Below are positions 7,271 through 10,891 of a stretch of 10,891 nucleotides of DNA, one piece after another. The notes beneath the pieces were generated by a model. It worked only from the letters and a program-made list of their open reading frames with translations, had not been told where the DNA came from and made no database searches. The position numbers and the translations under genes are program-made. Numbering within the stretch: the stretch's first letter is position 1; each line of letters opens with the position of its first letter. The stretch lies in IMG/VR virus record IMGVR_UViG_2541047778_000014; one strand, given 5' to 3'. Source of the DNA: a virus (lineage: Duplodnaviria > Heunggongvirae > Uroviricota > Caudoviricetes).

Positions 7271-7677
7271 TCGTACCTCCTGTCGGTAAATCTGACACCC
7301 TGACCAATAGCCCATGCTGTTGTGTACTCGATCAGACTTGCCATACGCTTCACACTCATCTGCGCGCTGCTTTCGCGAATGTTGACGTATTCGCCTTCAA
7401 GCCCGGGCAAAACATCAGCTTCCTGTTTTGTTGCCACTGCATGACCGCTGATCAACAAAACCTTCCATTGTTCTGGTTTTAACCATTTATCGCGCCACTG
7501 AACTTGCCTAGCGATATCTGCGACCATCGCGTGAAATTTTGCGTTCTGGTCAAGGTTGCGCTTGTAGTCAGTAATGCGGATGGTGACTGGCTTGTCTTTA
7601 TCGAGTGGTGTTGCGAGGATGGCATTTATTGCAGCTTGCTGTTGTTGCTTAGTTCGGAGGAATATTGTTTGCTTCAC
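7267..7677 (-). CDS. ninB: NinB recombination protein (Orf-family)
   Basis: 136 aa; aligns from its first residues with lambda NinB as recalled (e.g. [22 protein letters not shown] vs lambda RSLDQNRKLWACLGDVSRQVEW); GTG start at 7677..7675, only 5 bp from the IS end. Confidence 0.75.
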
Positions 7678-7736
7678 TGAATTGAACCGCCCCGGGAATC
7701 CTGGAGACTAAACTTCCTGAGAAAGAGGTAAACAGG

Positions 7737-8063
7737 ATGACTAAAAATACTCGTTTTTCCCCCGAAGTCCGTCAACGGGCAGTCCGTATGGTTCTGGAAA
7801 GTCAGAGCGAATATGACTCACAATGGGCGACAATTTGTTCCATTGCTCCAAAGATTGGCTGTACGCCGGAGACTCTGCGTGTCTGGGTTCGCCAGCATGA
7901 GCGGGATACCGGGGGCGGTGATGGAGGGCTCACCACCGCTGAACGTCAGCGTCTGAAAGAGCTGGAACGTGAAAATCGTGAACTGCGCCGCAGTAACGAT
8001 ATCCTTCGCCAGGCTTCCGCTTATTTTGCGAAGGCGGAGTTCGACCGCCTCTGGAAAAAATGA
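7737..8063 (+). CDS. IS629 OrfA (transposase N-terminal HTH/leucine-zipper protein)
   Basis: 108 aa; starts 55 nt inside the left IR; ends in an A6 run (8055..8060) that overlaps the orfB start. Confidence 0.9.
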
Positions 8064-8950
8064 TGCCACTGCTGGATAAGCTGCGTGAGCAGTACGGGGT
8101 CGGACCGCTATGCAGCGAACTGCATATTGCCCCGTCAACGTATTACCACTGTCAGCAACAGCGACATCATCCGGATAAACGCAGTGCCCGTGCGCAGCGC
8201 GATGACTGGCTGAAGAAAGAGATACAGCGCGTATACGATGAAAATCACAAGGTATACGGTGTGCGTAAAGTCTGGCGTCAGTTGTTACGGGAAGGTATCA
8301 GAGTGGCCAGATGCACTGTGGCACGTCTCATGGCGGTTATGGGACTTGCCGGTGTTCTCCGGGGTAAAAAGGTCCGTACGACCATCAGCCGGAAAGCCGT
8401 TGCCGCAGGCGACCGCGTAAACCGTCAGTTCGTGGCAGAACGACCTGACCAGCTGTGGGTGGCTGATTTTACTTACGTCAGCACATGGCGGGGCTTCGTC
8501 TATGTGGCGTTCATCATTGATGTGTTTGCCGGATACATCGTGGGGTGGCGGGTCTCATCGTCCATGGAAACGACATTCGTGCTGGATGCACTGGAGCAGG
8601 CGTTATGGGCCCGTCGACCGTCCGGCACGGTCCATCACAGTGATAAAGGTTCTCAGTATGTATCGCTGGCCTACACACAGCGGCTTAAGGAAGCCGGATT
8701 ACTGGCATCAACAGGAAGTACAGGCGACTCGTATGACAACGCGATGGCGGAGAGCATCAATGGTCTTTACAAAGCGGAGGTAATACACCGTAAGAGCTGG
8801 AAAAACCGTGCAGAAGTGGAACTGGCCACACTCACGTGGGTGGACTGGTATAACAATCGACGATTGCTGGAAAGGCTGGGCCATACTCCTCCGGCAGAAG
8901 CAGAAAAAGCTTATTATGCTTCCATCGGAAACGATGATCTGGCAGCCTGA
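8060..8950 (+). CDS. IS629 OrfB (transposase catalytic DDE domain; normally expressed as an OrfAB fusion by -1 frameshift)
   Basis: 296 aa; in the -1 frame relative to orfA, with ATGA overlap; rve-type integrase catalytic-core residues visible (D in WVADFTYV, D in [10 protein letters not shown] in DNAMAES). Confidence 0.9.
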
Positions 8951-9015
8951 GTTCACAGATAAAACACTCTCCAGGAAACCCGGGGCGGTTCAGGCAACAA
9001 ATACCATCTGTTGAA

Positions 9016-9258
9016 ATGCCGAATCACACATGGTTTTGCGTACTTGATATCGATGGTATGGATACGTTGGTTGACACTCGTCATTACTGCGATACCGCAA
9101 CAGCTACTCCGGCGAAAGCAAAGAAAATGGCTGCTCTGATAGAAAACTGGACTCCACCTGATGGTTGGTGCAATGGGAATGATCGAGATTGGCACGAAAA
9201 AATGAAGGGCTATATCTGCGATTTTTTACGTAAATGCAACGGCTTCAGGGGGATGTGA
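9016..9258 (+). CDS. hypothetical phage protein (80 aa), possibly 5'-truncated by the adjacent IS
   Basis: ORF starts 24 bp after the IS right end with no clear Shine-Dalgarno; the reading frame stays open upstream into the IS, so the native N-terminus may be missing. Stop lies 2 nt before the next gene. Confidence 0.4.
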   Translation: MPNHTWFCVLDIDGMDTLVDTRHYCDTATATPAKAKKMAALIENWTPPDGWCNGNDRDWHEKMKGYICDFLRKCNGFRGM

Positions 9259-9259
9259 T

Positions 9260-9832
9260 ATGACCAAAATTAACTATCAGGCACTGCGTGAGGCGGCAGA
9301 ACGTGCAATTCCGGCAATGGAACGCCTGTTAATGTTGCCAGTTGATGATGATTTGTTAAGTGAACAGGAACTTAAGGATTACGGTGTGGATATTGATGCG
9401 CTCAACGCCTTCAAATTTCTGACCGGACCAGAAACCGTGCTGGCGCTGCTGGATGAACGGGAAAGAAACCAGCAATACATCAAACGCCGCGACCAGGAGA
9501 ACGAGGAAATTGCGCTAACGGTAGGGAAGCTGCGCGTTGAGCTGGAAGCTGCAGAGAAGCGCATTGCAGAACTGGAAGCCGAACCTGTAAGCCAAACTTA
9601 CAAGTTGAACGAGCTGTCGGGCAACTATCCGGTAACTCCGGATGGTTGGATAAGCTGTAGTGAGCGAATGCCCGCTCAAGATGATTGGATTTTAATTTAT
9701 TCAAAGCACGGCGAGTATATGGCAGGACAGGTACAAGGGGAATACGTGGAGTTGAGCGACGGCACTTTATCGTGGTTAGGGAACGCCTTGTACTGGATGC
9801 CTCTACCGGAACCGCCGCAGGAGGTTAATTGA
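9260..9832 (+). CDS. Ead/Ea22-like protein with C-terminal DUF551-like domain
   Basis: 190 aa; AGGGGG Shine-Dalgarno 8 nt upstream; N-terminus MTKINYQALREAAERA plus a coiled-coil-like segment (LRVELEAAEKRIAELEA) and C-terminus WISCSERMP...YWMPLPEPP resemble Ea22-like/DUF551 prophage proteins as recalled. Confidence 0.65.
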   Translation: MTKINYQALREAAERAIPAMERLLMLPVDDDLLSEQELKDYGVDIDALNAFKFLTGPETVLALLDERERNQQYIKRRDQENEEIALTVGKLRVELEAAEKRIAELEAEPVSQTYKLNELSGNYPVTPDGWISCSERMPAQDDWILIYSKHGEYMAGQVQGEYVELSDGTLSWLGNALYWMPLPEPPQEVN

Positions 9833-10116
9833 TGGTCTCCTTCGCGAAATATACGATTATTGACTGGATAGCATTCATTCAGGTTTTGCTCATCTGGTTT
9901 TATATGGCTTACAGGAGTGGACAGTGGATTGTCAGTGTAGCCTGTAGCAATGGATGGCGTTGGTGGAACCGAAAGAATAAAAAAGCGCTGGCCTTGGCTT
10001 CGTTTTACGAAGCATTCAATCTTAACAGTCTTCAGCCTGGTTTTGTCGTTGTAGTCACCACTCAAAGCGGCATGACGATACAAATTCACAAGCCAAAGGA
10101 GGAAGGTCGTGGCTAA
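9829..10116 (+). CDS. hypothetical small membrane protein (95 aa)
   Basis: ATGA overlap with the upstream gene; one strongly hydrophobic segment (IIDWIAFIQVLLIWFYMAY) followed by a basic stretch; operon context supports it over the antisense ORF 9697..10155. Confidence 0.5.
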   Translation: MMVSFAKYTIIDWIAFIQVLLIWFYMAYRSGQWIVSVACSNGWRWWNRKNKKALALASFYEAFNLNSLQPGFVVVVTTQSGMTIQIHKPKEEGRG

Positions 10117-10393
10117 CCTGCAACTTGCCGTTAAAGGTGAATACTTCGATGCCATGATTCGCGGAGAGAAAACGGAAGAGTATCGCCTGTGTAATGACTA
10201 CTGGAATAAGCGAATTATGTTCCGCGAGTATGACCGCCTGATTATCACAAAGGGATATCCGAAGCGCGACGATTCCAGCCGCAGAATTGACGTCCCGTAT
10301 GACGGATATGAAATCAAGACAATCACACATCCGCACTTCGGCGATAAACCGGTAAAGGTGTTCGCTATAAAGGTGAATATCGACAATGAATGA
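10109..10393 (+). CDS. ASCH-like (PUA-fold, DUF3850-type) protein
   Basis: 94 aa; LAVKGEYFDAMIRGEKTEEYRL...REYDRLII resembles the ASCH/DUF3850 pattern (KPEYFEAV..G.KTFE.R...) as recalled; overlaps the upstream gene by 8 nt. Confidence 0.5.
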   Translation: MANLQLAVKGEYFDAMIRGEKTEEYRLCNDYWNKRIMFREYDRLIITKGYPKRDDSSRRIDVPYDGYEIKTITHPHFGDKPVKVFAIKVNIDNE

Positions 10394-10397
10394 TAAT

Positions 10398-10423
10398 CCT
10401 CGCACTCGCGGGGATTTCTTTTA
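10398..10423 (+). terminator. candidate intrinsic terminator after the ASCH-like gene
   Basis: CCUCGC-ACUC-GCGGGG stem-loop (6 bp with one G-U pair) at 10398..10413, followed by the U-rich run TTTCTTTTAT. Confidence 0.45.
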
Positions 10424-10465
10424 TCTGAACTCGCTACGGCGGGTTTTGTTTTATGGAGATGATAA

Positions 10466-10633
10466 ATGCACTTCCGAGTCACAGGTGAATGGAATGGAGA
10501 GCCATTCAACAGAGTTATCGAAGCAGAGAACATCAACGACTGCTATGACCACTGGATGCTGTGGGCGCAGATAGCACATGCAGACGTAACTAATATTCGA
10601 ATTGAAGAACTGAAAGAACACCAAGCCGCCTGA
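10466..10633 (+). CDS. small hypothetical protein (55 aa), not in the supplied ORF track
   Basis: Manual translation: MHFRVTGEWNGEPFNRVIEAENINDCYDHWMLWAQIAHADVTNIRIEELKEHQAA. GGAG Shine-Dalgarno 7 nt upstream; protein-like composition; stop directly followed by an intrinsic terminator. Preferred over the overlapping track ORFs 10386..10574 (+) and 10451..10699 (-). Confidence 0.45.
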   Translation: MHFRVTGEWNGEPFNRVIEAENINDCYDHWMLWAQIAHADVTNIRIEELKEHQAA

Positions 10634-10648
10634 TGGCGGTTTTTTATT
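10625..10648 (+). terminator. intrinsic terminator downstream of the 55-aa ORF
   Basis: GCCGCC-UGAU-GGCGGU stem-loop (10625..10640) followed by TTTTTTATT (10641..10649); the stem includes the ORF stop codon. Confidence 0.6.
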
Positions 10649-10690
10649 GCCTGATTTGCAGGTTCGATTCCCTATTCGGAGATAGCACTC

Positions 10691-10891
10691 ATGCAACACG
10701 AACTACAACCTGATTCACTGGTTGATTTGAAATTCATCATGGCCGATACTGGCTTCGGTAAAACCTTCATCTATGACCGGATTAAGTCCGGCGACCTGCC
10801 AAAAGCCAAAGTTATCCACGGGCGAGCAAGATGGTTATATCGTGACCATTGTGAATTCAAAAATAAGCTCTTAAGCCGCGCCAATGGGTAA
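10691..10891 (+). CDS. AlpA-family HTH protein, probable excisionase (Xis-like)
   Basis: 66 aa; DLKFIMADTGFGKTFIYDRIKSGDLPKAKVIHGRARWLYRDHCEF matches the AlpA/excisionase HTH pattern from recall; GGAG 9 nt upstream; sits at the distal end of the early-left genes where xis-int are expected (int would lie beyond the window). Confidence 0.6.
   Translation: MQHELQPDSLVDLKFIMADTGFGKTFIYDRIKSGDLPKAKVIHGRARWLYRDHCEFKNKLLSRANG

Follow-up and report, generated by a model that had tools for sequence, protein, structure and literature searches.

The DNA analysed here, a stretch of 10,891 nucleotides referred to as the window, is 100% identical to the draft scaffold KE700025.1 (GCA_000457855.1), the single assembly in which the truncated terminase ORF at its left end (72-827, minus strand) is on record. 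A complete copy of IS629 (IS-B) separates prophage genes on the minus strand from prophage genes on the plus strand, and the end of a second copy (IS-A) forms the left edge. L004 coordinates are those of the matching S88 locus.

1-120, minus strand: IRL end of IS-A, matching the opening 120 nt of IS-B at 100% identity and pointing out of the window
121-827, minus strand: large terminase gene (Pfam Terminase_3), its 3' end cut by IS-A, into which the ORF (72-827) runs
2485-3842, minus strand: lysis cassette with holin (3519-3842), endolysin (3059-3535), Rz-type lysis protein (2625-3062) and a small ORF (2485-2637)
4439-7270, minus strand: antiterminator Q (4439-4957) and nin region with ninH, rusA, ybcO/DUF1364, a Rha/KilAC antirepressor (5788-6510), ninF, ninX and ninE, named from Pfam and from RefSeq names of 100%-identical genes
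7267-7677, minus strand: ninB, 136 aa, GTG start (complement of 7675-7677), Pfam NinB 1-131 of 131
7678-7682: final 5 bp of phage sequence at the left junction (7682/7683), which corresponds to L004 21562
7683-8992, plus strand: complete IS629 copy IS-B
7737-8063, plus strand: IS629 orfA, 108 aa, HTH_Tnp_1
8018-8134, plus strand: ALIL pseudoknot, a frameshift stimulator (Rfam RF01497, 120.2 bits), spanning the A6 slippery run at 8055-8060
8060-8950, plus strand: IS629 orfB, 296 aa, HTH_21, rve and rve_3
8993-9258, plus strand: DUF7739 gene without its first 34 bp; the right junction (8992/8993) corresponds to L004 30275
9260-9832, plus strand: Ead_Ea22 and DUF551 gene
9832-10116, plus strand: DUF4752 gene
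10109-10393, plus strand: ASCH gene (name from identical RefSeq copies)
10466-10633, plus strand: 55-aa ORF
10691-10891, plus strand: torI (excisionase), 100% identical to WP_001163428.1 copies

The prophage to which these genes belong is P22-like and lambdoid, and lies at argW/dsdC. In the source scaffold, examined over ~30 kb (L003, L007), the P22-type virion genes for coat, gp4, gp10, gp7, gp20 and gp16 are found to the left of the window (L003; Pfam families P22_CoatProtein, P22_Tail-4, Phage_stabilise, P22_gp7, Inj_translocase and Phage_P22_gp16), and together with the nin-Q-lysis block (NinB/E/X/F/H, RusA, Q and holin) they mark the prophage as P22-like. To the right (L007), torI is the terminal gene and adjoins dsdC, the arrangement of the argW recombination module, with dsdXA, emrYK and evgAS beyond. 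The complete map, which runs from dsdC-torI to intS at the far end, is seen in the relative E10. This locus and its torI/intS recombination module are also used by KplE1 of K-12, HK620 and Sf6 (PMC3509656). Since the right flank of IS-B runs through torI into dsdC-dsdXA and the left flank runs into P22-type structural genes, both flanks lie in their native places. An earlier reading made from the letters of the window (the sequence-only reading) had placed Ea22-like/DUF551, ASCH-like and excisionase-like genes to the right of the IS; all are present, the excisionase being torI, but the first gene on that side is the truncated DUF7739 gene and not Ea22.

IS-B is 1310 bp long and apparently intact. 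Its terminal inverted repeats (IRL, 7683-7707; IRR, 8968-8992) are 25 nt in length and 92% complementary, their outermost 14 nt (TGAACCGCCCCGGG) being perfect, and like those of IS629, a member of the IS3 family, they are imperfect and end 5'-TG...CA-3'. The two overlapping ORFs between them (HTH, then DDE rve) and the stimulatory structure are likewise those of IS629. The second ORF is in the -1 frame relative to orfA at the A6 run, a programmed frameshift is marked by RefSeq in near-identical copies of the IS, and the orfB product is predicted to be made as an OrfAB fusion via this -1 frameshift. Over 1310 of 1310 bp, IS-B shares 99.5% identity with elements that records of Stx phages (LC567824, LC567828) annotate as 'IS3 family IS629', and it is 100% identical to the IS629 copy in AF017626 and to copies in two other E. 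coli, E10 and CP164873.1; the copies in BEN5202 and AH19K002 differ from it by one base. Given 99.5-100% identity over all 1310 bp, IS-B is IS629 itself and no chance pattern. The sequence-only reading, which had described a complete IS629-like element with perfect 14-bp terminal repeats between these same ends, was therefore correct both in the repeats and in the assignment. In length, inverted repeats, orfA/orfB organization with a -1 frameshift and ALIL pseudoknot, IS-B does not differ from IS629, and only its missing flanking duplication is unusual. In RefSeq, the O157 copies of IS629 carry the label 'IS3-like element IS1203 family'.

On simple insertion IS629 makes a 3-bp target duplication, as seen at the copies 100% identical to IS-B in E10 (GGT) and CP164873.1 (TAC), and at related IS629 variants in AH19K002 (TAC) and E10 (CCC); the duplication is given as 3-4 bp in the literature (Rump 2011, PMC3271280). 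IS-B lies in the context ...CTTCACTGAAT, IS, GGCAACAAAT..., and a search for a 3- or 4-bp direct repeat at its ends found none (AAT or GAAT on the left, GGC or GGCA on the right), so the mismatch of the flanking triplets reported earlier survives re-inspection. As evidence for a deletion, however, the missing duplication is weak when taken alone, since matching 3-4 bp duplications were found at only 21 of 47 IS629 sites in O157 genomes (PMC3271280). The case for a deletion is carried by comparison with relatives. A deletion gives a circle as its reciprocal product, and this circle is lost; looking for the partner of the missing duplication at another IS629 copy in the genome, as had been suggested, would therefore lead nowhere.

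The comparison supports the conclusion that IS-B marks an internal 8,712-bp deletion in this P22-like lambdoid prophage at argW/dsdC. Positions 121-7682 of the window correspond to L004 14001-21562 and positions 8993-10891 to L004 30275-32174, each at 99.9% identity and both on the same strand of the S88 locus, so that L004 21563-30274 (8,712 bp) is missing and IS629 is in its place. The flanks are 100% or 99.9% identical to BEN5202 and S88, on one strand and with exact breakpoints. The left flank (121-7682) matches, at 99.9-100%, a prophage carried by many complete genomes (S88, APEC O1, ATCC 11775 and E10 among them), and the matches of these relatives all end exactly at 7682. The same 8,712-bp spacing of the two flanks, with order and orientation unchanged, is found in E10, ATCC 11775 and further relatives, and the intact left and right sites occur in 127 and 430 complete genomes, respectively. 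As its flanks are unduplicated (AAT versus GGC) and are separated by 8,712 bp in S88 and E10, IS-B is not classed as a simple insertion; its exact IS termini and the collinear, co-oriented flanks of one prophage are those of an IS-bounded internal deletion. The alignment of both flanks to intact relatives, a check proposed with the sequence-only reading, sets the endpoints at L004 21562 and 30275 and, through S88, E10 and ATCC 11775, supports the claim that a deletion removed the immunity, replication and recombination modules.

Neither junction was encountered elsewhere: 120-nt queries across the two IS junctions found no place covering at least 80% of either query in 5,426 complete E. coli genomes, and the exact 32-nt junction strings had 0 matches, for both junctions, in JGI metagenome contigs and in GTDB representative genomes. 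One could imagine a natural mosaic in which ninB natively lies beside the ea genes and the IS inserted without a visible duplication, and the third IS629 copy of the scaffold (IS-C, below) does appear to have contiguous flanks without one. However, an adjacency of ninB and the right-hand genes, with or without an IS, which the sequence-only reading had itself named as counter-evidence, occurs in none of the 5,426 complete E. coli genomes and the mosaic is to that extent refuted. In such a mosaic ninB would moreover miss its Shine-Dalgarno sequence and DUF7739 its first 11 codons, both of which are present in every intact relative, and we regard this origin of the junction as having next to no probability.

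In the order given by the RefSeq annotation of S88, AH19K002 and E10, the lost segment comprises a phiTE_015-family pseudogene and a small ORF; a replicative DnaB-type helicase and a replication protein; a small ORF, cII, cro, a LexA-family (cI-type) repressor and the divergent promoter region; three small ORFs, erf, one ORF and an anti-RecBCD gene; and a DUF2737 fragment, YfdS and the initial 34 bp of DUF7739. Both pL and pR are among the lost DNA. Immunity, replication and recombination functions, including cII, cro and the cI-type repressor, are thus absent as had been claimed. The sequence-only reading had also listed lambda O, P, exo, bet and gam as missing, but the genes lost are of P22 type, because the phage is P22-like, lies at argW/dsdC and ends in torI.

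At the left edge, ninB is placed as originally described, on the minus strand with its GTG 5 bp from the end of IS-B, and this start is the one annotated for the identical RefSeq protein WP_000814617.1 in relatives. The native ninB leader in relatives reads AAAGGAGT/ATTCAGTG, also given as GGCATAAAAAATAAAGGAGT/ATTCAGTG, and its Shine-Dalgarno sequence, AAGGAG, is on the deleted side. The claim that IS sequence has replaced the native ribosome-binding site accordingly holds, and all native upstream DNA, including pR, is gone. At the right edge, what is left of DUF7739 is an 80-aa ORF that starts at an internal ATG (9016) and covers Pfam positions 21-95 only, while the 99-aa S88 protein covers 1-95. 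This ORF was rejected as a junction-specific marker, as other gene callers call the 80-aa form in intact prophages. A search with it turned up CP164873.1.

In the source strain, three or more IS629 copies, IS-B among them, are found within 20 kb of this prophage. IS-A, 7.5 kb away and inverted relative to IS-B, continues as an N-gap in the source scaffold. Its flanks (GAA/GTT) show no duplication and map to L004 14001 and 9954, which indicates a separate 4,046-bp deletion that removed the terminase C-terminus, portal, scaffold and the coat N-terminus; the intact large terminase gene of relatives is 1416 bp long. IS-C interrupts the ejection gene gp16, is also an N-gap in the draft, and has contiguous flanks yet apparently no duplication (GCT on the IRL side, TTA on the IRR side). 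The two gaps have sizes of 1110 and 1040 N and are bordered by contig ends with 95-120 nt of IS; both copies are in the orientation opposite to IS-B. One prophage therefore carries three independent IS629 lesions: the IS-A deletion, the IS-B deletion and the IS-C insertion in gp16.

Among the three visible copies, no flanking triplets match crosswise (IRL sides AAT, GAA and GCT; IRR sides GGC, GTT and TTA). An inversion between inverted IS629 copies was rejected on this ground and because the flanks are oriented as in relatives. Mismatched flanks are also a signature of inversions and translocations, and with IS-A inverted only 7.5 kb away, IS629 copies at different loci might have recombined such that the missing DNA was relocated and not lost. 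We consider this very improbable: besides the absence of cross-matching triplets, both flanks come from one prophage whose native order and orientation they retain, they are 100% identical to relatives, and on the right the sequence runs on into dsdC at its native junction.

A draft assembly could also mislead, if a short-read assembler had collapsed two IS629 copies around the 8.7-kb segment, or had joined flanks that are not adjacent. KE700025.1 is a draft scaffold in which IS-A and IS-C are unresolved N-gaps with 95-120 nt of IS at contig ends, and the junctions are absent from every other assembly searched. IS-B, however, was assembled N-free inside one contig, and each N-gap together with its IS ends amounts to about one IS length, suggesting sensible spacing of paired reads. 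In addition, joints of this kind are seen in this prophage in the closed long-read genomes of BEN5202, AH19K002 and CP164873.1. An artefact is accordingly improbable, if not quite as remote as the relocation of the missing DNA, and we put the probability that a real IS629-bounded deletion exists, whatever its route, at roughly 90%.

The IS629 and IS629-type copies found in the same prophage of the closed genomes, including those three, are as follows.

AH19K002, simple insertion of a 97.9% variant with TAC duplicated: upstream of ninB, in the opposite orientation, 2 bp away from the left junction of the window
E10, simple insertion with GGT duplicated: ejection gene gp20
E10, simple insertion of a 96.3% variant with CCC duplicated: ClpP/arc region
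CP164873.1, simple insertion with TAC duplicated: DUF7739, in the opposite orientation, ~26 bp away from the right junction of the window
BEN5202, between truncated dnaB and truncated erf: no duplication, 5,666 bp deleted
AH19K002, between truncated gp10 and truncated terminase: no duplication, 6,830 bp deleted
AH19K002, between truncated tail-fibre and truncated ant: no duplication, two truncated genes joined
CP164873.1, between L004 1617 and 28627: no duplication, ~27 kb deleted
CP164873.1, L006 295-1604, beside the antirepressor gene: unduplicated flanks (ATC/TCC) that were not located in S88

A 3-bp duplication accompanies each of the four simple IS629-type insertions in these closed genomes, and of the five copies without a duplication, four are at deletions (5.7, 6.8 and 27 kb) or at the junction of two truncated genes. 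As in the window strain, duplication-less IS629 lies exactly at the deletion joint in BEN5202, AH19K002 and CP164873.1, and the repressor and replication genes were also lost from BEN5202 (5,666 bp) and CP164873.1 (27 kb). Since endpoints and IS orientation differ, the deletions in BEN5202, AH19K002 and CP164873.1 were separate events.

Reportedly, IS629-associated deletions in E. coli O157:H7 were already described by Ooka in 2009. In O157:H7, 62% of IS629 copies are in prophages (PMC3271280), and a passage in PMC9943667, citing Ooka 2009 and Kusumoto 2011, puts IS629-associated deletions at up to more than 40 kb. Prophage decay by IS629 in O157:H7 resembles the present case in the IS itself, in the preference for prophages, in that fewer than half of the copies have duplications, and in deletions that start exactly at the IS end. 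It differs in the host, which here is of an extraintestinal/avian-pathogenic-type lineage (relatives S88, APEC O1, ATCC 11775 and BEN5202), and in the target, which here is P22-like. Prophage deletions marked by IS629 were thus known before; novelty is confined to this allele, and no new mechanism is involved. The interest of the case is as an example, resolved to the base, of prophage decay driven by an IS in a strain other than O157, at the site where K-12 has the cryptic KplE1.

The exact IS termini and collinear flanks fit two routes and argue against random illegitimate joining. The most likely route, to which we give about an even chance, is two-step and ends in recombination between two IS629 copies. 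In the first step, copy-out-paste-in transposition would put two IS629 copies into the prophage in direct orientation, one 5 bp upstream of ninB (with AAT duplicated) and the other 34 bp into DUF7739 (with GGC duplicated). In the second, RecA-dependent recombination of the two 1.3-kb repeats would loop out the intervening DNA and leave one hybrid IS, with its left flank from the first copy and its right flank from the second. We prefer this route for three reasons: regeneration of the donor is expected of copy-out-paste-in (IEE review, bioRxiv 10.1101/2023.06.07.543989), several copies have visibly accumulated in the prophage, and direct repeats of 1.3 kb recombine readily. Several nearby IS629 copies, which it needs, are present in the source strain. 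Passages of PMC3271280 and PMC9943667 put both IS629-associated deletions and frequent missing duplications on record. IS-A and IS-C, however, are both oriented opposite to IS-B, which speaks against two-step recombination, and the source is a draft scaffold with two IS629 N-gaps.

Alternatively, the deletion may have been made in one step by IS629 transposase from a single resident copy, either by aberrant ('sloppy') strand transfer to a distant site or by intramolecular transposition from a tandem IS dimer. Under either variant, which the IS-excision enhancer IEE may have aided, the IS would keep one flank and gain another. Both IS termini are kept to the base, as expected of a joint made by transposase, although recombination between two copies explains exact IS ends equally well. 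Independent IS629-type insertions so close to the junctions, 2 bp from the left one in AH19K002 and ~26 bp from the right one in CP164873.1, make either junction a plausible primary insertion site. The intermediate of the two-step route, a same-orientation IS629 at either site with its own duplication, was found in none of the 5,426 complete genomes, the GTDB representatives or the JGI metagenome contigs, which favours a one-step event. However, as copy-out-paste-in is expected to regenerate the donor, a one-step deletion in which the IS is kept would need an extra, unproven reaction (bioRxiv 10.1101/2023.06.07.543989), and we hold the one-step origin to be a possible but less probable one, perhaps a one-in-three matter. 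A polymorphism inside IS-B that would reveal a hybrid origin was sought and none was found, IS-B being 100% identical to the E10 and CP164873.1 copies and one base from those of BEN5202 and AH19K002. As the intermediate is absent from all collections searched, the two routes are not separable here.

Whatever the route, the deletion explains why the prophage is a dead remnant, as the repressor, the early promoters and the replication and recombination genes are all gone. The remnant should be unable to be induced or to replicate, and should give no immunity. With pR lost, the nin-Q-lysis genes would be without their promoter; ninB would also lack its native ribosome-binding site. A consensus scan of 7300-9400 for sigma-70-like promoters found none, against 2.0 expected by chance, and there is therefore no sign of an outward promoter. 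The genes from truncated DUF7739 to torI lie downstream of the IS transposase genes and are co-oriented with them, and transcription might therefore read through into them; stx2::IS629 offers a precedent for read-through across this IS (PMC7430833).

Loss of the repressor alone, leaving pR-cro-replication-Q-lysis in place, would probably be lethal. By this survivorship argument, the strains that survive should be those whose deletions also took both early promoters, a pattern that BEN5202, CP164873.1 and the window strain would all fit. Two broader ideas are both rather doubtful. The first is that IS629 may not hit this prophage at random: the insertions 2 bp and ~26 bp from the junctions in other strains, and three independent IS629-bounded deletions that all removed the repressor-replication block, could reflect true target hot spots combined with selection for 'grounding' the P22-like prophage in B2-type E. 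coli. The second is that IS-C, with its contiguous flanks and no duplication, could point to a non-canonical entry of IS629 into DNA.

The prophage of the window has the argW recombination module in common with KplE1 (CPS-53) of E. coli K-12 and with HK620/Sf6 (PMC3509656, PMC2951348), and with KplE1 it further shares the integration locus argW...dsdC, torI as the last gene, and YfdS-family and other early-left genes. KplE1, with 16 ORFs, is a far smaller remnant, whereas the prophage described here keeps nin, Q, lysis and many structural genes and therefore likely represents an earlier stage of KplE1-type decay. For annotation, ninB, Q and the lysis genes here are best not taken as parts of an inducible phage, and both DUF7739 and the terminase are truncated.

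The prophage that carries IS-B, the complete IS629 in the window, has two further copies of this element, IS-A and IS-C, and IS629 or IS629-type copies also lie in the same prophage of E. coli relatives. Coordinates labelled L003 refer to a piece of the source scaffold that reaches beyond the window, and L001, L002 and L006 to BEN5202, AH19K002 and CP164873.1.

Window 1-120, running on as an N-gap at L003 10708-12032 of the source scaffold; inverted relative to IS-B: IS-A, an IS629 copy
Source scaffold beyond the window, L003 19523-20752: IS-C, the third IS629 copy, splitting a gp16-type ejection gene
L001 20688-21997: IS629 of BEN5202 at its own deletion, with 5,666 bp gone and a helicase fragment fused to an erf fragment
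L002 20955-22264, opposite orientation to IS-B: IS629-type insertion of AH19K002, a 97.9% identical variant with a TAC duplication
L006 8640-9949, opposite orientation to IS-B: IS629 copy of CP164873.1, 100% identical to IS-B, with a TAC duplication

At IS-A, 4,046 bp are absent relative to the intact prophage of S88 (the terminase C-terminus, portal, scaffold and coat N-terminus), and the element brings together a truncated large terminase gene and a truncated P22 coat gene. As with IS-B, its flanks (GAA/GTT) show no duplication. The flanks of IS-C, ACAGCT and TTAT, adjoin each other in S88 (ACAGCTTTAT); compared with S88, no 3 bp are duplicated and no bases are lost, the right flank being readable for 4 nt only and the copy itself being an N-gap. 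Unlike IS-C, all four simple insertions found in closed genomes carry a 3-bp duplication.

The flanks in BEN5202 are 100% identical to those of the window, and its IS629-bounded deletion is a different one, which likewise takes the repressor, cro, cII and the replication protein. The independent insertion in AH19K002 lies 2 bp from the left junction of IS-B (window 7682/7683), within the AT-rich ninB leader, and such proximity may reflect a local target preference. The CP164873.1 copy is found at the DUF7739 start, about 26 bp from the right junction (8992/8993), and in this prophage CP164873.1 has also lost about 27 kb through an IS629-bounded deletion.

The DUF7739 gene itself (window 9016-9258) is called as 80 aa from an internal ATG in several assemblies, intact prophages included, and as 99 aa in RefSeq; the Pfam comparison favours 99 aa as the probable length. 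Beyond it lies an intact ORF; for the same DNA in relatives, RefSeq gives an Ea22-like pseudogene, marked incomplete, and a small hypothetical gene.

Window 9260-9832: Ead_Ea22+DUF551 ORF, 190 aa

Elsewhere in the window, an ORF-free stretch of about 600 bp (3843-4438) separates Q from the holin gene. The Q-holin interval is where pR'/tR' are expected; an Rfam search of 3843-4438 at the gathering threshold gave no match. The window also contains two Rha/antirepressor-type genes.

Window 1737-2348: Phage_pRha + ORF11CD3 gene, flanked by lysis cassette and terminase genes
Window 5788-6510: Phage_pRha + ANT/KilAC gene, inside the nin region
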